This document shows positions 3-8,208 of a DNA stretch of 64,000 bases, in pieces. Position 1 is the stretch's first letter; the number at the start of each line of letters is the position of its first letter. The stretch spans positions 121,458 to 185,457 of the forward strand of contig JAVVEA010000003.1 of the NCBI GenBank assembly GCA_032250835.1. The letters are read 5' to 3'. The notes under the pieces were generated by a model, which saw only the letters and a program-made list of their open reading frames with translations, did not search any database and had not been told where the DNA came from. The position numbers and the translations under genes were made by a program. The stretch comes from a bacterium. GTDB taxonomy: Bacteria > SAR324 > XYD2-FULL-50-16.

Positions 3-1895
3 AAAGGCCCCAAGCTGCTGCAAGCAGCCCCCTATGGAGCCAATCGTTTCACCCTGCTTTTTGAAGATGGCTCCGTGACTTTAGTGCGGGTCCGCTTCCA
101 AACCGAATTTGCCGAAGACAACCACCGGACGGTGGAACACCAAGCCTCGGTGGTGCGCCGCCTGCCGGTGGGCACCTTTGCGGCCGCTCCGGTCAAGGTC
201 CAGTTGCGGGCTATTGGGGCCGGATTGTTGGCGGTGGCGCAACTGCCCGATAACCGGTTGCAGTTGGTGGCCCTTAAGGTAGAAGAAGATTTCTTGGGCA
301 ATGTGAGCGAATCTCGCTTTGAAAGCTTCATCAATGCCGAAGACCCTGTCAGTGCATATTCGCTTAATGAAGCGGGCACCCAATTATATGTAGCTACCGA
401 GACGGGTAAGCTGATGCTCTGGAGCCTCAAAGACCCTGAAGAACCGAGTCTTTCGGACCTACAGCAGGCCTTTGACGATGGCCGCAAACTGACCGATCTG
501 GCCTTGCTCTTTGGTGATGAATCGATTGTGGTCGGGGACTCGGCTGGTCAGGTAACCAGTTGGTTCATGGCCCCGGCTTCTGAAGGCAGTCCCGAAAAGA
601 AGCTGACCCGCATCCACGACTTAAGCCAGTTCAACAGCCCGGTCCAAAGAGTGACGGCCTCGTTGCGCAACAAATCGGTGCTCTCTTTGGCCGACGGCAA
701 GATTGAATTGGATCATTCCACCTCTGAACGCAATTTGGTCAGTTTCGAGACCCAGGCGCCGATCACCCACTTTGCTTTCTCGACCCGGGGTAACGGCCTC
801 TTGGCGATGGACGGGCAAGACAAGGTAACCCTCTGGTCTGTAGACGCGCCGCACCCCGAAGGCAGCTGGCAGGTTTATTTTGGTAAGGTCTGGTACGAGA
901 ACTACGATGCTCCGGCTTACGTCTGGCAATCCTCGGCTGGTACCGATGACTTTGAGCCCAAATTCAGCTTGATCCCGTTGATCTTCGGCAGCCTGAAGGG
1001 CACCCTTTATGCCATGCTCTTTGCGGTGCCGATCGCCATCTTCGGTGCACTCTACACCAACCAATTTGCCAGCCGCCGCTTCCAGGCGATCGTCAAACCG
1101 GCGGTGGAGATCACCGCCGCCGTACCTAGCGTGATCATCGGTTTTTTAGCGGCCCTTTGGTTGGCTCCGATCGTTGACGAATGGCTGTTGAGCTTCTTTT
1201 TGTTTATCCTGATCCTGCCGCTCCTGTTGTCGCTGTTTTTGCTCGCCTGGGCTCGGCTACGGACCAACTTAAAGATCCGCTTGATCGAGCAGTCAAAGGA
1301 GCTTTATCTGGCCATGCCCTTATTGCTGATGGCCATTGGCATGTCAGTCTGGCTACAGCCGATGGTGCAAGACTGGCTCTTTGACGGCAGCTTTAAACAA
1401 TGGATCTTTGACAACATCACCAAGAATTACGACCAGCGCAACAGCATCGTTATCTCTTTCGCGTTGGGCTTTATCGTGATCCCCTTCATTTTTACCATGA
1501 CCGACGACGCTCTTTCGAGCGTGCCCGACTCCTTAAAGGCGGCCAGTGCTGCGCTCGGGGCTAGTCGGTGGCAGACGACTTGGAAAGTGTTGTTGCCCTC
1601 GGCCTCGCCGGGGCTTTTTGCCGGGACCATTCTGGGCATGGGCCGCGCCATTGGGGAAACGATGATCGTTTTGATGGCCACCGGCAACACGCCGATCATC
1701 GATTTGTCGATGTTTAACGGCATGCGGACCCTTTCGGCCAACATTGCTGTAGAAATCCCCGAAGCGCCGGTGGGCGGTTCGCTGTACCGGGTCTTGTTCC
1801 TTTCGGCGGTGATCCTCTTTTGTTTCACCTTCGTAATCAACAGTCTGGCAGAATTATTCCGTTATACCTTGAGGAAGAAGTATGCCGAATTCTAA
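3..1895 (+). CDS. pstC: Phosphate ABC transporter permease PstC, long form with beta-propeller-like domain; 5' partial
   Basis: Frame is open from the window start. C-terminal permease motifs (SLKAASAALGASRWQT, GRAIGETMIVLMATGN). First gene of pstC-pstA-pstB-phoU. Confidence 0.9.
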   Translation, partial: KGPKLLQAAPYGANRFTLLFEDGSVTLVRVRFQTEFAEDNHRTVEHQASVVRRLPVGTFAAAPVKVQLRAIGAGLLAVAQLPDNRLQLVALKVEEDFLGNVSESRFESFINAEDPVSAYSLNEAGTQLYVATETGKLMLWSLKDPEEPSLSDLQQAFDDGRKLTDLALLFGDESIVVGDSAGQVTSWFMAPASEGSPEKKLTRIHDLSQFNSPVQRVTASLRNKSVLSLADGKIELDHSTSERNLVSFETQAPITHFAFSTRGNGLLAMDGQDKVTLWSVDAPHPEGSWQVYFGKVWYENYDAPAYVWQSSAGTDDFEPKFSLIPLIFGSLKGTLYAMLFAVPIAIFGALYTNQFASRRFQAIVKPAVEITAAVPSVIIGFLAALWLAPIVDEWLLSFFLFILILPLLLSLFLLAWARLRTNLKIRLIEQSKELYLAMPLLLMAIGMSVWLQPMVQDWLFDGSFKQWIFDNITKNYDQRNSIVISFALGFIVIPFIFTMTDDALSSVPDSLKAASAALGASRWQTTWKVLLPSASPGLFAGTILGMGRAIGETMIVLMATGNTPIIDLSMFNGMRTLSANIAVEIPEAPVGGSLYRVLFLSAVILFCFTFVINSLAELFRYTLRKKYAEF

Positions 1896-3510
1896 AGAAC
1901 AACAGGCCTTTGTCAAAGCCGAAATCAAGAAGTTTTGGCGCGAAGGCGAATACAACGTCTGGTTCTCCACGCTCAGTATCGGTGGCATTCTGCTGATGGC
2001 CTTGACCCTTTTGGTGGTCGTGGTGATCAACGGCTTGGGGGCTTTGTGGCCGGCGGACTTGGTACAGGTGAAGACCGAAGACGGGCGCACCTATTTGGGC
2101 GAGCTCAAGCAGACCGGGGTGCATCCTTTGACCAAGGAAGCGCGCTTCCAACTTAAAATTGGCAACCGGGACCTTTATCCCTTGGATTTTAAGTGGATTG
2201 AGTCAAAGCATGTGACCGAAACCCAGCATCCCGAAGAGGCCATTGCTTTAGAACGCGAAGAATATGGCAATTTTTACGGCTACCTAAAAAGGGTGCAAAG
2301 CCCGGCGCTGACCCGCGAGGATGGCGGACTGGAAGCCTTGCGCATGCCTGCTGCCAACGCGCGAGAAAAACTGGAAAGCCTCAACGACGAGATCAAAAGT
2401 CTCTCGCAAGAGATGCAGTCGGTGAGGCTCGACATCCAGGCCATCAAGTACCACCACCCTGACGAACCCGAACGGCCTGAATTGATTGAATTGGGCAAGA
2501 AGGTACGGGCTCTCCGGTTTGAGTTCGACAAGTTGGTCCATGCCCAAGGGGTAGAGCAGAGTGCGGCGTTGATGCATGTGGCGGTCTTTGAGGACGTCGA
2601 GGGGAAGACCCGCGAAATCCCCATGATCTACATCCACCGCTACTATTACCCCAACCAGATGAACTGGGCCCAGAAGACCCTCCATTATTTGGCCAAAATA
2701 TTGGAGTTGTTTATTGCCGAACCTCGCGAATCAAACACAGAAGGCGGTTTGTACCCGGCCATCGTGGGTACGGTGATGCTGGTGATGATCATGAGCATGT
2801 TCTCCTTCCCCTTAGGGGTCATCGCCGCCGTCTACTTGCGCGAATATGCCCGCAAAGGGGTGATGGTCCAAGCGATTCGGGTGGCGGTCAACAATTTGGC
2901 CGGCATCCCTTCGATCGTTTGGGGCATCTTTGGCTTGGCCTTCTTTATTTACGCCGTCGGTGGCGGCATCGACGCGGTCTTCTTCCCGGAGCGTTCACCG
3001 AACCCGACCTTCGGCACCGGCGGGGTCCTTTGGGCCAGCGCTACCTTGGGGCTATTGACCGTTCCGGTGGTGATCGTAGCTACCGAAGAGGCCTTGGGTT
3101 CGGTGCCCGGAGAAATCCGCCACGGCTCCTTAGCGCTAGGGGCAACCCAGTTCCAAACGCTGATGCGGGTGATATTACCGATGGCCAGCCCGCGCATCAT
3201 GACCGGCTTTATCCTGGCCATGAGCCGTGCCGCTGGTGAAGTAGCCCCCTTGATGATCACCGGGGTGGTTAAACTGGCCCCCTCCTTGCCGATAGATACT
3301 GACTTCCCCTTTGTGCATTTAGAGCGTAAGTTCATGCATCTAGGGTTCCATATCTATGACGTGGGCTTTCAATCGCCCAACGTTGAAGCCGCCAAACCGA
3401 TGGTTTTCGTGACCACGTTGCTGCTCTTGGGCGTGGTGGTCACGCTGACTTCCGCGTCTATCTTTTTACGCAACCGGATGAAGAAACGTTTCGCCGGACG
3501 AACCTTCTAA
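1882..3510 (+). CDS. pstA: Phosphate ABC transporter permease PstA, long form with coiled-coil insert
   Basis: NLAGIPSIVWGIFG, GSLALGATQFQT and SRAAGEVAPL motifs; overlaps pstC stop. Confidence 0.92.
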   Translation: MPNSKEQQAFVKAEIKKFWREGEYNVWFSTLSIGGILLMALTLLVVVVINGLGALWPADLVQVKTEDGRTYLGELKQTGVHPLTKEARFQLKIGNRDLYPLDFKWIESKHVTETQHPEEAIALEREEYGNFYGYLKRVQSPALTREDGGLEALRMPAANAREKLESLNDEIKSLSQEMQSVRLDIQAIKYHHPDEPERPELIELGKKVRALRFEFDKLVHAQGVEQSAALMHVAVFEDVEGKTREIPMIYIHRYYYPNQMNWAQKTLHYLAKILELFIAEPRESNTEGGLYPAIVGTVMLVMIMSMFSFPLGVIAAVYLREYARKGVMVQAIRVAVNNLAGIPSIVWGIFGLAFFIYAVGGGIDAVFFPERSPNPTFGTGGVLWASATLGLLTVPVVIVATEEALGSVPGEIRHGSLALGATQFQTLMRVILPMASPRIMTGFILAMSRAAGEVAPLMITGVVKLAPSLPIDTDFPFVHLERKFMHLGFHIYDVGFQSPNVEAAKPMVFVTTLLLLGVVVTLTSASIFLRNRMKKRFAGRTF

Positions 3511-4308: not shown

Positions 4309-4995
4309 ATGACGATTCATCTGCAAAAGGAAATCGAAAAGCTCAAGACCATGATCCTCTCAATGAGTGCTCGGGTCGAGAAAAACTTCCATGATATCTC
4401 CGAAGCCGCTATCATTAGCGATGTGGAAACGGCTAATCGGGTGATCAAAGAGGAAGCACAAATCAACGACATAGAGCTGGAGATTGAGGAAGAATGCCTC
4501 AAAAGTCTAGCGCTCTACCAGCCGGTAGCGGTCGATTTGCGGCTGATCGTGGCGATCTTGAAGATCAATAATGAGTTAGAGCGGATCAATGACTTTTCGG
4601 TCAATATCGCCGAACGTGTCTTGGACCTAGCCAGCCTGTCTAACTTTGAGACACCCTTCGACATTAAGGGCATGTCCGAAAAGGTGGGGCGGATGCTCTC
4701 GATGAGCTTGGACGCGCTGATCAACATGGACCCGCAGCTGGCAATCGAAGTCTGCAACTTAGACGACGAGGTGGACGACCAGAACAAAGAAATCTTTGCT
4801 CAGGTCACCACCGAGATCCAAAAGGACCCCAGCCGGGTCAAGATCATGTTGCAATATGCCTCAATCAGCCGCTACCTAGAGCGTATCGCCGATTTGGCCA
4901 GCAACATCGCCGAGGATGTGATTTACTTGGTTGAAGGCGCGATCATCCGGCACCAGGATATTGAGGATCTTTCTGAAATCAGCCACGGCGACTAA
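4309..4995 (+). CDS. phoU: Phosphate signalling protein PhoU
   Basis: YQPVAVDLR, ELERIND and YLERIADLASNIAEDVIY repeats; follows pstB. Confidence 0.95.
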   Translation: MTIHLQKEIEKLKTMILSMSARVEKNFHDISEAAIISDVETANRVIKEEAQINDIELEIEEECLKSLALYQPVAVDLRLIVAILKINNELERINDFSVNIAERVLDLASLSNFETPFDIKGMSEKVGRMLSMSLDALINMDPQLAIEVCNLDDEVDDQNKEIFAQVTTEIQKDPSRVKIMLQYASISRYLERIADLASNIAEDVIYLVEGAIIRHQDIEDLSEISHGD

Positions 4996-5996
4996 AACCG
5001 CAGGCCCATGGTGATCTGTTGGCTGCGACCCTCTTGGCTAGGGTCGCCGCCTAGTTCCATGGCGTAAACGTGGTCGGTGAATTGGTAGCCGATTTGGTAC
5101 CCCTTCTGGGGGACCCAGGAAAGGGTCAGTCTGCGCAATTGACTGCTACGCTCCACTTGAAATTGGTCGGCCACCTCGGCGAATTGTATCTGTTCGCTGT
5201 GCAGCCCCACCAAAAACCTCCCCATTTTTAATTCCAATTCCAATCGTTGCCTCTCTTCGTCAGGATGCAGCGTTGAGAGGTCGGTACCTTGGTGGGCATA
5301 GTTCGCTTGGCCTCTGGCCGCTTCGATGCGTACCTGGGCAAATCCGTTGGTCTTAAAGGCTAATGCCGCCCAGTTGCGGTTGAACTGGGTGGCTGCTTGG
5401 CTGAGCCGTTGCCGCTCAACCTGTTCTACCCCACCAGCCAAGTACAGCAGTCCGGCGAGCCGCAAGCTGAGGCTGGCGTTTTGACTGTTTTGATAGGTCG
5501 GGGCGCTTTGGTCTATGTGGATCGCTTGGTGCTGGGCCGCTAAGCCAAATCCGAGCGGGCCCAGCGGGAGGGCTAGGTTTAAATGGGTCCAATCGGCCTG
5601 CTGGTGGCTGACGCCGCCAGCGGACTTATGGCTACAGTTGTAGACCTCATCGACCTGACCACAATGGCTGGCTCCTTCAAGCCACAATAGGTCGGTGCTA
5701 CTGCGGGCAACCCAGGGCTCGACCCGGACCGGGCCGAGGGTAAAGCTACTGGTGATCTGCTGTCCCGAGCCGTTCCAGTCAATGGCGTCATCGCCGCCCA
5801 AGCCGTGGGTCTGCCAACTGGCTACATTGAGGCTGATTTGGTCGGTGGGCTCACCCTTTTCGTCGCTATCGCGCCATGCTAGAGCGGCAGGCAGCAGGCT
5901 GGGGTGGGAAGGGTCTAGAGAGGCAGTGGCCACTTGGGCGGCCAAGGGGCTGCTCCAAAGGGCCCAAAATAGAGTAGCTAGCAGAAGGATTTTCAT
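4992..5996 (-). CDS. Exported hypothetical protein, probable outer-membrane beta-barrel
   Basis: Signal peptide MKILLLATLFWALWSSPLAA (ATG 5996), alternating amphipathic strands, C-terminal ITMGLRF ending in Phe. Confidence 0.55.
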   Translation of the reverse strand: MKILLLATLFWALWSSPLAAQVATASLDPSHPSLLPAALAWRDSDEKGEPTDQISLNVASWQTHGLGGDDAIDWNGSGQQITSSFTLGPVRVEPWVARSSTDLLWLEGASHCGQVDEVYNCSHKSAGGVSHQQADWTHLNLALPLGPLGFGLAAQHQAIHIDQSAPTYQNSQNASLSLRLAGLLYLAGGVEQVERQRLSQAATQFNRNWAALAFKTNGFAQVRIEAARGQANYAHQGTDLSTLHPDEERQRLELELKMGRFLVGLHSEQIQFAEVADQFQVERSSQLRRLTLSWVPQKGYQIGYQFTDHVYAMELGGDPSQEGRSQQITMGLRF

Positions 5997-6110: not shown

Positions 6111-7898
6111 CTAAAACCCTTTGCGCAGCGTAGACAGAGCCTGGGCCAGAAGTCCGCGGGCTTTAAGGGCCTGCTCCTTCTGCGGGGGCCTTTCGCGTAG
6201 GCCTTGGATTAAGGCACTACGGGGGCCTCTGTTCAGCGCTAATAAAATAGGCTCTTGCAACGATTTGGAGAGGCCGAAAAGGGCCTGTGCTAGCACCTCG
6301 GGGTCTAGGGTCGAGAGGCTCCGACGCAAAGACAAAGAATCTAGTTTAGGTAGCTCTTCCCAGGGGAAGTAAGATTGGCGAACCGCCGTCCCCAGGGCGA
6401 CTTCTTTCTCTTCGAGGCGCACCATAAATTCTTCGCGCTCCACGGGCCCTAAAGTTTCCAGCTTTTGCAAGGCTTCGCCTAAGGCTGTCGGGTCCACCTG
6501 TGCGGCGGCGCGTTGTTCTTCAAGACGGGTCTGGAGGCCTCGGGCGATTTGAGCCAGCAGGTCGGGCGCCAAGCTGCGCTTCTTTTTACGTTCCTCGGCT
6601 AGGGAAGCGGGGTGTTGCAGCCTTTCGGCCAAGGCCTCGGCTTCGCCGTTCCAATGCCGCAAAACCAGGGCCTGGATCAGGGGGGTTTCCTCAACGATCA
6701 ACCGGTAGATTTCATCGCTTTCGGCGTCTTTTAAGAAGGCCAAGGCCTTCTGTTCTTCTGGCAGGCTGGCGTGGGGCGTGGGGCTTGGGGCCACGGGTTT
6801 TTTGGGGGCCGGTTCTGCCGGGGCTGCGGGCTGAGTTTGGGCCTTTTGTTTTTCGTCCTTTAGGTGGCGCAACTTATCTAAGAAAAAGTGCTGGTGTAGT
6901 TCCATCAGCAGCTTATTCTCTTCCTCGGGACTAAAAAACAAGTCAGCTGCTTCGCTGAGCAACTCGGCGATGCGCGGCTTTTCAAGGGCTTCGCCAAAGG
7001 CTTGTTGGCTGCGGCCGGGGCCGAAGACGGCCATGATCCGCGCGAGCCCCCTGGGGCCCCGGTCTACGGCCAGTTCACGGGCCCAGTCGGGTTGGAGGCG
7101 GAGTAATTCACACAGGTCTGTTTTGACGCTATCTAAGTCGAGGTCACTATTTTCTTTAAAGAGCCCTTTAAAGTCTTTGAGCTCCGTAAAATCCACCTCC
7201 CCTTCAACCTTCAAGTGCGCCAAACGAGCCATGTCTTTCTCGGGGCTTTCGGCACGGCGGCGCAGGAATAGAGCCAAGACCAATACAGCGGCCACCGAAA
7301 GGCCCAAACCCCAGATCAGGTAGGGTTGCTCGCGGTCCATGATGGGCTCTTGGCTGGGCTCATCTTGAAGGGGTTCCAGAGAGCGGGGTGCGTTGGCCGG
7401 TTTGAGCGTTAAGTCGGAGGTGGTCGCTGGGGGCTCTTCGGGCGTGGCTTCTGGCGGGGCCGCTGGTGCCGTACTTTGGGCAACCCCTAAATCCAACCAG
7501 TCTCCTTTAGCCAAGGGGCCGATTTTCTGGGCCAAGGCGGATTGGAGTTTTTGGGCCGCCTGATCCGACAAAGGACCGGTGAAGTTGAGCTTAACTTGGA
7601 TTCCCTGGGCGGTAAACCCACCCCCGCCCAGTTGAGCCGTAAGGTCGGGTACAATCCGACCATCGCTCAGGCGTTTGGATTTTTGGGCTACCTTACCTTG
7701 GCCTAGGTTTTTTTGCGGGGCCCAGGTGATTTTGACTAGCGCCGGGCTCGACAACGGGAGCCCCTGTTCGGCGGCTACCGCTTCGGCCTGCCGAGCTAGG
7801 CGGTCCTCCTCTAGCAAAGGCGCAGTAACGCCTTGGGCCCAAAGGGGGGCAGCCAAGAAGGGCCAAGATAAAATGAGGGCAAGAAGGTTTAATCGCAT
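6111..7898 (-). CDS. Membrane-anchored FliG-domain protein, apparent FliF(C-terminal half)-FliG fusion
   Basis: Signal peptide, RBM3-like segment (PLSDQAAQKLQSALAQKIGPLAKGDWLDL), TM helix, then FliG N/M/C-like blocks (IVEETPLIQALVL; AVRQSYFPWEELPKLDSLSLRRSLSTLDPEVLAQALFG). Confidence 0.7.
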   Translation of the reverse strand: MRLNLLALILSWPFLAAPLWAQGVTAPLLEEDRLARQAEAVAAEQGLPLSSPALVKITWAPQKNLGQGKVAQKSKRLSDGRIVPDLTAQLGGGGFTAQGIQVKLNFTGPLSDQAAQKLQSALAQKIGPLAKGDWLDLGVAQSTAPAAPPEATPEEPPATTSDLTLKPANAPRSLEPLQDEPSQEPIMDREQPYLIWGLGLSVAAVLVLALFLRRRAESPEKDMARLAHLKVEGEVDFTELKDFKGLFKENSDLDLDSVKTDLCELLRLQPDWARELAVDRGPRGLARIMAVFGPGRSQQAFGEALEKPRIAELLSEAADLFFSPEEENKLLMELHQHFFLDKLRHLKDEKQKAQTQPAAPAEPAPKKPVAPSPTPHASLPEEQKALAFLKDAESDEIYRLIVEETPLIQALVLRHWNGEAEALAERLQHPASLAEERKKKRSLAPDLLAQIARGLQTRLEEQRAAAQVDPTALGEALQKLETLGPVEREEFMVRLEEKEVALGTAVRQSYFPWEELPKLDSLSLRRSLSTLDPEVLAQALFGLSKSLQEPILLALNRGPRSALIQGLRERPPQKEQALKARGLLAQALSTLRKGF

Positions 7899-8208
7899 AG
7901 GAGCTGGATAACTGATTTGGCGGCAGTATAGGTCAAACGGGGCGCAGAGGAAAGGGCTAAAATAGGGACCAGCCGTTACAATTTGTTACAATAGTTCACC
8001 TAGGGTTCATGACCTCTGGAGGCCAAGGGTATAGAAATGGGACTATATGGGGTAGCGGGTGCCACCGGGGATTAGTCAAGAATCCTTAAATTTTAGTCTT
8101 TAGCCTTAAATCCTACCCCATTATGTCCCTTGTGCGAAGTATAATTTGAGCGCATATTTTTAGCAGTTCAATTGATCGGATAGTTGCTTTAACAGATTGA
8201 GGAAAAAG

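Follow-up and report, generated by a model that had tools for sequence, protein, structure and literature searches.

What is a protein built from flagellar rotor parts doing in a stretch of DNA that otherwise holds no flagellar genes? FliF and FliG are textbook flagellum-only parts, the C-terminal helix of FliF binding FliG in flagella. The question is raised by one open reading frame (ORF) in the 64,000 nucleotides analysed here (the window; SAR324 assembly GCA_032250835.1, contig JAVVEA010000003.1, positions 121,458 to 185,457), which a first-pass annotation made from the sequence alone had described as a stand-alone FliF-FliG fusion. Its statement that the 64 kb contain no flagellar genes holds for the seven flagellar families searched, the fusion gene apart. 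The product is a single-pass inner-membrane protein in which the last third of FliF is naturally fused to a full-length FliG, and it is not the flagellar rotor. Our preferred reading, to which we give even chances, is that this non-flagellar fusion forms a ring of FliF ring-building motif 3 (RBM3) and a FliG-like ring, together a static envelope scaffold with neither stator nor switch that probably works with an outer-membrane barrel.

The 595-amino-acid ORF fills positions 6111..7898 and is read on the minus strand (7898 to 6111); the plus strand of the same interval is closed by many stops. The annotated gene is real, and all 19 of the 19 peptide strings quoted for it could be located in the order given. 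Its strand had gone unnoticed, as had a conserved barrel partner and the place of the protein within a larger group of fusions, of which it is a derived branch; both are described below. The parts of the protein are as follows (TM, transmembrane; pLDDT, predicted local distance difference test).

6111..7898, minus strand: whole ORF, FliF(RBM3-TM-C helix)-FliG fusion, protein P0001 (ORF, Pfam, TIGR00207, AlphaFold2 model, Foldseek, VIA).

7836..7898, minus strand: residues 1-21, N-terminal hydrophobic segment, signal peptide or uncleaved TM1-like anchor (Kyte-Doolittle scan; model helix 2-20).

7470..7835, minus strand: residues 22-143, periplasmic ring-building-motif domain like FliF RBM3 (model, VIA, alignment).

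7329..7469, minus strand: residues 144-190, disordered linker rich in Pro, Ala and Glu (pLDDT <50 over 143-188).

7257..7328, minus strand: residues 191-214, TM helix, followed by RRR (213-215) (Kyte-Doolittle scan; model).

7152..7199, minus strand: residues 234-249, juxtamembrane motif EVDFTELKDFKGLFKE (subfamily alignments).

7062..7136, minus strand: residues 255-279, FliF C-terminal-like helix, LCELLRLQPDWARELA (model helices 255-268 and 270-292; profile of 255-356).

6831..7061, minus strand: residues 280-356, FliG N-terminal-like domain (VIA 8wo5_B5, Z 11.8; Foldseek).

6519..6758, minus strand: residues 381-460, FliG middle-like domain, with ETPL (404-407) in the place of EHPQ (4fq0_C, Z 10.5; TIGR00207; PDB profile match).

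6114..6368, minus strand: residues 511-595, FliG C-terminal-like domain, with YFPW (510-513) in the place of MFxF (8ucs_H, Z 12.3; Pfam FliG_C).

We count this architecture as established, its RBM3 part as moderately supported. The Pro-rich linker, the TM helix and the RRR stand as they were first described. So does the hydrophobic character of residues 1-21, which had been called a cleavable signal peptide; cleavage is uncertain because the residue at -3 is Leu, and the segment may be an uncleaved TM1-like anchor.

The FliG part is recognised both by structure and by sequence. The full-length AlphaFold2 model, built from a 30-sequence alignment, has a mean pLDDT of 80.8, with 326 residues at pLDDT >=90. 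It begins with helix 2-20 and continues with alpha27-44, beta54-61, a low-confidence hairpin, beta95-106, alpha112-126 and beta135-139; after this periplasmic fold come disorder (143-188), a long helix (191-227) holding the TM segment and an all-helical cytoplasmic region (238-594). When the model was compared with the PDB by Foldseek the first 13 matches were all FliG (E 4e-7 to 2e-4), full-length Aquifex aeolicus and Salmonella C-ring FliG being among the matches with 328-342 columns aligned. In the VIA structural comparison FliG scored Z 10.5-13.0 over the model, and the three-domain N/M/C fold was found in order, residues 280-595 aligning to Salmonella FliG 5-319. Domain by domain, 384-460 superposed on FliG_M of Helicobacter pylori with a root mean square deviation (rmsd) of 1.9 over 77 residues, and 511-595 on the FliG_C of a MotAB-FliG complex with an rmsd of 2.0 over 84 residues. 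By sequence, Pfam FliG_C (PF01706) matched residues 495-572 (E 7.7e-6; 26.6 bits against a gathering cut-off of 23.3), and the NCBIfam fliG equivalog TIGR00207 matched residues 382-555 over model positions 108-283 (E 7.9e-10) at 38.6 bits, below its equivalog cut-off of 226.7. A three-sequence profile searched against PDB sequences found FliG 1lkv (E 4.5e-5) and also 3usw, 3usy, 4fhr and 3ajc. Pfam FliG_M and FliG_N were not detected in the protein at E <= 0.1. The claim that one polypeptide carries FliG N, M and C is thus borne out by the superpositions and by FliG_C, and the claim that a FliF-C-like helix runs into FliG-N by the model helices 255-268 and 270-292. Residues 255-279 we take to be FliF-C from their position and from the FliF-C consensus.

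The periplasmic domain requires more caution. In the models residues 22-143 fold as alpha-beta-[short hairpin]-beta-alpha-beta, and the collar of the RBM3-like domain has shrunk to a short low-confidence hairpin at about residues 62-94 (~30 residues). VIA aligned this region of the full model to Salmonella FliF 231-438, that is RBM3 plus collar (Z 8.6, rmsd 3.7 over 94 residues). For a model of the domain alone, which has a pLDDT of 61.6, below that of the same region in the full-length model, the best 12 of the 50 listed rows were all FliF RBM3/collar (Z 9.0-7.8), with domain-model residues 2-122 aligned to Salmonella FliF 234-438 and a beta insertion at the collar position. The best structural matches were Salmonella and Vibrio FliF 228/234-438/452, so that an RBM3 fold with inserted collar, and after a linker a TM helix, is found as in FliF (Z 8.6-9.0). 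The first description of an RBM3 with a short collar stands as the best match of the fold, with moderate support, and falls short as a proof of identity, given that unrelated folds lie close by. The opposite view is that this part is not derived from FliF and is an unrelated alpha/beta domain, OsmC/Ohr-like or ferredoxin-like, set on a membrane-anchored FliG paralog. Foldseek with the domain model found nothing at E <= 0.001 and put OsmC-like chains first (E 5e-3), with FliF RBM3 at E 0.039; in VIA the OsmC/Ohr/MAT folds follow FliF closely (Z 7.8-7.0), leaving it a margin of only ~1 Z; sequence similarity to FliF is not significant, Pfam giving nothing at E <= 0.1 in the domain and the periplasmic profile (A5) no FliF match among PDB sequences. 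We nevertheless consider an unrelated domain quite improbable. The 12 top VIA rows coincide exactly with FliF 234-438 with the insertion where the collar should be, and other ring-building proteins (PrgK, SpoIIIAG at Z 7.4-8.0 and the Shigella MxiG/J ring) are also among the rows. The RBM3 assignment is strengthened by the order of the parts, since RBM, TM helix, helix and FliG_N follow each other exactly as from FliF to FliG, and by weak matches to YscJ_FliF_C (PF08345) in relatives (P0015, E 0.0018; P0022, E 0.00079; protein p452 of the related locus L032, E 0.00024), a family for which no sequence match was found in P0001 itself. YscJ_FliF (PF01514), which covers RBM1 and RBM2, was not found in P0001 at E <= 0.1 and only ~120 periplasmic residues are structured. 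RBM1/2 are therefore absent from the polypeptide and an export gate has no place in it, as had been supposed.

A word-indexed search of 5.8e9 proteins returned only two relatives, at 42% identity, and an exhaustive profile search of 1.84e9 representatives gave 128 matches at E <= 1e-3. Five of them reached E <= 1e-30, all about 600 amino acids long: P0002 (the query's own record), P0003 (a query row), P0006, P0007 and P0008. These five with P0001 and P0004 form what we count as a subfamily of six proteins. A second tier comprises 24 proteins of 577-712 amino acids (alignment A2) with the FliG match at the C-terminal side, and in 21 of them a Kyte-Doolittle scan found a TM helix at about residue 180-330. 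When ten long matches were compared with Pfam, FliG_M and FliG_C were present in all seven from the second tier, and of three subfamily proteins only P0006 had a match, a weak FliG_C; two second-tier proteins had weak YscJ_FliF_C matches. The remaining profile matches are ordinary FliG of ~335 amino acids. Among 88 genomes of the same phylum just two, G086 (47% identity) and G087 (42%), have close orthologs. They are from the window's own family, in which 3 of 19 genomes carry the fusion gene, the window's genome (G000) included. Weak matches occur in 26 more genomes of the phylum, in ORFs of 600-865 amino acids (22 genomes), of ~350 amino acids (2) and in shorter or cut frames (2).

All four same-phylum loci that were examined (L032 to L035) have the same composition, here called a cassette: an outer-membrane barrel of 324-369 amino acids, two TPR-containing proteins and the fusion. 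MotA and MotB (plug+OmpA) genes adjoin the fusion locus in two of the four, L032, which belongs to the window's own family, and L034. One accessory protein of each cassette (438-458 amino acids; L032 4663-6021, L033 10687-12063, L034 10755-12071, L035 3925-5247) has a segment in common with the RBM-like periplasmic domain of the fusion (BLASTP E 7e-8 to 1e-4), and the RBM-like TPR protein of L032 is the one with the weak YscJ_FliF_C match mentioned above. To judge from these sequences the cassettes may build stacked periplasmic rings. A profile of residues 255-356 of the subfamily found the cassette fusions P0012, P0009, P0014 and P0018, colinearly and at E 6e-12 to 3e-6, against 0.017 at best for ordinary FliG N domains. 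The periplasmic domains of both groups also align colinearly, with KGD or QGE under the RGD of the cassette fusions (KGD at 131-133 in P0001). A tree of the FliG M+C region was built from 108 rows after removal of 15 fragments <300 amino acids and 6 matches with <80% profile coverage; in it the cassette fusions group together (SH-aLRT 92), and the window subfamily is a clade with 100% support that sits on a long stem (1.1). From these comparisons we conclude that the subfamily descends from a cassette-type fusion, with accelerated divergence. On the evidence it is a fast-evolving branch of narrow distribution within a larger family of ~600-amino-acid FliF(RBM3)-FliG fusions.

The genome of the window (3.66 Mb, 43 contigs, 97% complete) has a flagellar gene set of its own. 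A canonical fliF (E 2e-58) is located elsewhere, in a fliE-flgCB / fliF-fliH-fliI region. Canonical fliG, which is not part of the fliF-fliH-fliI operon, is found only in pieces that lie at the ends of four contigs (C43:135982-136395 with C15:11-436, and C20:1-165 with C19:6-128), as would be expected if gaps in the assembly had interrupted two similar fliG genes. A canonical fliM (on C38), flhA and eight flagellin-type matches are also present. A search of the genome for separate fliF and fliG had been proposed with the first description; as both are encoded elsewhere, the fusion is not the organism's ordinary FliF/FliG, nor its flagellar rotor. It could still belong to the flagellar basal body as an accessory or alternative subunit (e.g. 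a brake, spacer or assembly factor), co-assembling with FliF through its RBM3 or with FliG. The three carrier genomes all have fliF and a flagellar-type MotB, the RBM3-like, FliF-C-like and FliG N/M/C folds could insert into MS and C rings, and other rotor parts are duplicated in the genome (two fliG, a second FliM/FliN pair). Yet the fusion is found in 3 of the 19 family genomes though fliF is in 17, it never lies beside flagellar genes in five lineages, its nearest relatives are cassette fusions sitting with their own MotAB and no flagellar genes, and the second FliM-like gene (16 of 19 genomes) does not co-vary with it, all of which makes a basal-body role unlikely.

This second, divergent FliM-like gene (318 amino acids; C33:190281-192989, L040 7279-9989, minus strand) is ~4.8 kb beyond the window end, matches FliM (E 1.8e-9) and FliMN_C, and adjoins a 581-amino-acid protein with a C-terminal FliMN_C. 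The pair, one gene FliM-like and the other FliN-like, lies 61 kb from the fusion; it was considered as a dedicated switch for the fusion and rejected, given the occurrence of the FliM-like gene in 16 of the 19 family genomes and of the fusion in 3.

Whether the fusion turns is a separate matter. EHPQ(R) in the middle domain of FliG is the FliM-binding motif, and the alignment with E. coli FliG confirmed that ETPL occupies this position in P0001; the subfamily rows shown have ETPL, ENPM, ETPL, ESSL and ESPL. The possible absence of a switch is supported by this loss. The same alignment confirmed the change of MFxF (MFLF in E. coli) to YFPW, with AFAA, FYPW, FLDV and FLDP in the relatives, and showed that the Gly-Gly linker (hinge) of FliG is absent from P0001. 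At the torque helix the charges R281, D288 and D289 (E. coli numbering), which are named in PMC12505986, are replaced by G558, Q565 and G566. A HMMER alignment to Thermotoga maritima FliG agrees, and the genome's own canonical FliG keeps SERAADMVRDDL at this place. The hydrophobic face of the helix is kept (S561, I564, L567), as are basic residues in the subfamily rows shown (R560 in 4 of 5, R/K568 in 5 of 5).

No stator gene is linked to the fusion at the loci of the five lineages. The only MotB_plug gene of the genome lies beside a MotA gene on contig C1, and extra MotAB-like stators, which the first-pass annotation had suggested looking for, did not turn up, this MotB being of the type present in 19 of 19 family genomes. 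MotB_plug genes number one each in G000, G086 and G087 and two in G077, G080, G081 and G083, where the second is weaker-scoring. A tblastn of all cassette proteins against the genome retrieved only the C1 MotAB (28-32% identity) and none of the accessory genes; among themselves the MotA proteins of the cassettes share 56% identity. Five other MotA/ExbB-family genes in the genome are each followed by an ORF of 134-138 amino acids, which by size and motif reads as ExbD/TolR-type. The C1 region (C1:72281-77798, L036 4282-9799, minus strand) contains, 131 nucleotides after the MotA-MotB(plug+OmpA) pair, a 1309-amino-acid ORF, the sole Pfam signal of which is a sub-threshold match to the FliG-related MgtE_N (residues 346-398, E 1.4e-4), possibly a large FliG/MgtE-N-like protein linked to the stator.

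With stator, FliM-binding motif and torque charges all absent, the fusion would be a static scaffold and not a rotor. The alternative is a rotor that receives torque in trans, from the flagellar-type MotAB or from one of the five ExbB/TolQ-type channels, so that its periplasmic ring turns and acts on the outer-membrane barrel. Its FliG_C-like domain does superpose on MotAB-bound FliG (84/88 residues), the basic residues of the torque helix are conserved, candidate motors exist in the genome, and cassette-type relatives with their own MotAB have also lost D288/D289, so that the loss of charge alone is no proof of lost stator coupling. We regard a driven rotor as rather unlikely, for a linked stator gene is present in 0 of 5 lineages, the sole MotB is of a type that all family genomes have, carriers of the fusion or not, and the torque-charge, MFxF and Gly-Gly positions are not only lost but vary within the subfamily. 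Of the "rotary or scaffold machine" first suggested, the scaffold fits better and the rotary machine finds no support in the single family-wide MotB_plug, the lost R281/D288/D289 and the missing cassette MotAB.

The gene could also be a decaying, functionless relic of a cassette-type fusion, as the long stem branch, the loss of all flagellar functional motifs and of the cassette partners, and the disappearance of the barrel partner in one lineage might suggest. Actually, the ORF is intact, ~600 amino acids long and stop-free in five lineages that are 34-47% identical, with 76 invariant columns spread over all domains. Most of the motif EVDFTELKDFKGLFKE is conserved across the subfamily, D236 and F237 being invariant in 6 of 6 proteins, and cassette-type fusions lack it. 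On the evidence of these alignments the folds, the FliF-C/FliG-N junction and the new juxtamembrane motif can be taken to be under purifying selection. Together with a conserved promoter element and the confidence of the AlphaFold model, this makes a relic very improbable.

The gene lies between pstCAB-phoU, which converge on it, and a divergent TetR-OEP-MFP-RND operon, so that its neighbours are these and a barrel gene and not flagellar genes. Three further features belong to its surroundings.

4992..5996, minus strand: barrel-like gene of 334 amino acids, 114 nucleotides after the fusion, with a signal peptide, a conserved Cys pair (CGQxD..NC) and a C-terminal Phe.

7975..7991, minus strand: upstream element TTGTAACAA-N3-GTAAC, two GTAAC-type half-sites 10 bp apart, ~77-93 nucleotides before the ATG (five-lineage alignment).

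7925..7930, minus strand: TATACT, a -10-like hexamer in the conserved block CCTATACTG (alignment A8).

The 334-amino-acid protein has the appearance of an outer-membrane beta-barrel, and in the ESM Atlas it falls among OmpG/CymA/Slam-like barrels, a lead only. The pair of fusion then barrel is found in 4 of the 5 lineages (window, G086, L055 and L056) with a gap of 62-137 nucleotides, and in L056 it is kept though the pst operon is not adjacent. A partnership between the two proteins is plausible. Paralogs of the barrel are located at C22:360553-362464 (L037 6554-8465) and C22:305552-306523 (L038 7553-8524), two of them in tandem; this family has an N-terminal AQ(V/M)xTPxxDPSxP motif, a C-terminal aromatic residue and no Pfam match.

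Upstream of the fusion the TTGTAACAA core is invariant in 5 of 5 aligned lineages, and the strict TTGTAACAA-N3-GTAAC pattern occurs once in the 3.66-Mb genome. The block CCTATACTG with TATACT is exact in three of the five, has one mismatch in L056 and is absent from the aligned G087 stretch; the TATACT region is a putative promoter. The direct repeat resembles the Pho boxes of pstS in the lineage, from which it differs in period and orientation. It is of GTTACA type with a 10-bp period and in opposite orientation to the TTTACA-type, 11-bp repeats, and we do not claim it as a Pho box. The pstS repeats, ATTTTACATTAATCTTACAT and ATTTTACAACTAGTTGACAA, are two Pho-box-like direct repeats with an 11-bp period, conserved upstream of pstS in three lineages and here outside the window (C33:119870-120132). 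The direct-repeat element and the pst-phoU neighbourhood leave room for control by a stress- or phosphate-responsive response regulator, which may act on the fusion gene. On the other side, just upstream of the TetR gene, an imperfect palindrome TAGCAGTTCAATTGATCGGATA (window 8161-8182, plus strand) lies within the block CGAnCAnTTGAAC, conserved in 4 of 5 lineages, and is likely the TetR operator for the RND efflux operon. PstC (window 3-1895, plus strand; 736 amino acids full length) and PstA (1882-3510, plus strand; 542 amino acids) both have roughly double their usual length, and the additional part of PstC gives weak WD40/beta-propeller matches at residues 100-290 of the window's partial frame.

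In the static scaffold that we prefer, the RBM3-like domain would oligomerise into a periplasmic ring and a FliG-like ring would form beneath the membrane. The assembly would be held in the inner membrane, stator-less and switch-less, and would probably work with the outer-membrane barrel encoded directly downstream. Transcription would start from the gene's own conserved promoter, bearing the response-regulator-like direct repeat. The more specific history, in which a rotor core lost stator and switch and persists in the inner membrane as a static ring linked to a barrel in the outer membrane, we offer as a tentative possibility. Several observations weigh against these ideas, beginning with the OsmC-like folds close behind FliF, the lack of FliF sequence similarity in the periplasmic domain and the missing charges of MotAB-bearing cassette fusions, all given above. 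The RBM3 ring itself is a prediction, on which a four-copy model of the periplasmic domain (score 0.36, mark 0.42) bears neither way. As for descent, the subfamily periplasmic profile does not reach the cassette fusions (best E 0.42), and the FliG-MC tree leaves the subfamily at an unresolved node and not as their sister. As for the barrel, the G087 lineage is without it and has an unrelated 125-amino-acid ORF at that place; it belongs to a multi-copy family with three paralogs elsewhere in the genome; and comparison with the cassette barrel gave a hhalign probability of 0.2% and, with a 4-sequence hidden Markov model, E 0.044 at best. As the barrel is multi-copy and without detectable homology to the cassette barrel, its partnership with the fusion could be plain synteny.

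Compared with known systems, the fusion shares with FliF a split RBM fold with an insertion at the collar position, a TM helix and then a helix ahead of FliG-N. FliF itself has RBM1 and RBM2 and forms rings of about 33-34 subunits, whereas the fusion has no PF01514, a collar of ~30 residues and a signal-peptide-like segment directly before RBM3. With FliG it shares three domains in order, superposing one by one at rmsd 1.9-2.0; unlike FliG, it is covalently joined to a FliF part, anchored in the membrane and devoid of EHPQ, MFxF, Gly-Gly and R281-D288-D289. SpoIIIAG, PrgK/EscJ and MxiG/MxiJ have the RBM fold too, in SpoIIIAG also with a beta insertion, but no sequence relation to the fusion, and none of them is fused to FliG. 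Full-text literature searches found no natural truncated FliF-FliG fusions outside flagellar loci, only engineered fusions and general papers on stator evolution, which is no proof of absence. The engineered Salmonella/Vibrio FliF-FliG fusions (PDB 8z4d/8z4g) also hold both proteins in one chain, and the three-sequence profile matches one of them (8z4d_1, 945 amino acids, E 0.0038). Engineered fusions of this kind are reported to assemble into rings (mBio 2024, PMC11481574). They consist of full-length FliF and FliG and work in a flagellum, while the fusion described here occurs in nature, is missing two thirds of FliF and is non-flagellar. As it is devoid of RBM1/2, has a collar that is very short and joins FliF to FliG covalently, it offers a natural minimal construct in which to study the assembly of the S-ring and the FliG ring. 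If the ring does assemble, RBM3 and FliG together would suffice as a ring-building module, and the protein would show what this module does without torque; if the whole reading is true, nature would here have turned a rotary machine into a trans-envelope scaffold.

The nearest comparison is with the cassette-type fusions (L032 to L035, P0009, P0012, P0014, P0018 and others). They have the same order of parts, ~600 amino acids and a TM helix at ~200, a specifically related FliF-C/FliG-N region and a ~330-amino-acid barrel gene in the locus. They differ in having their own MotAB (where adjacent), TPR/RBM accessory genes and a barrel of a different family. Their charged coiled-coil after the TM helix corresponds to the short motif EVDFTELKDFKGLFKE in the window subfamily and their RGD to KGD/QGE, and the FliG motifs of the window protein are more degenerate. 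The stator-less branch thus contrasts with the MotAB-linked fusions as the same chassis without stator and switch motifs and with another outer-membrane partner, kept in flagellated organisms.

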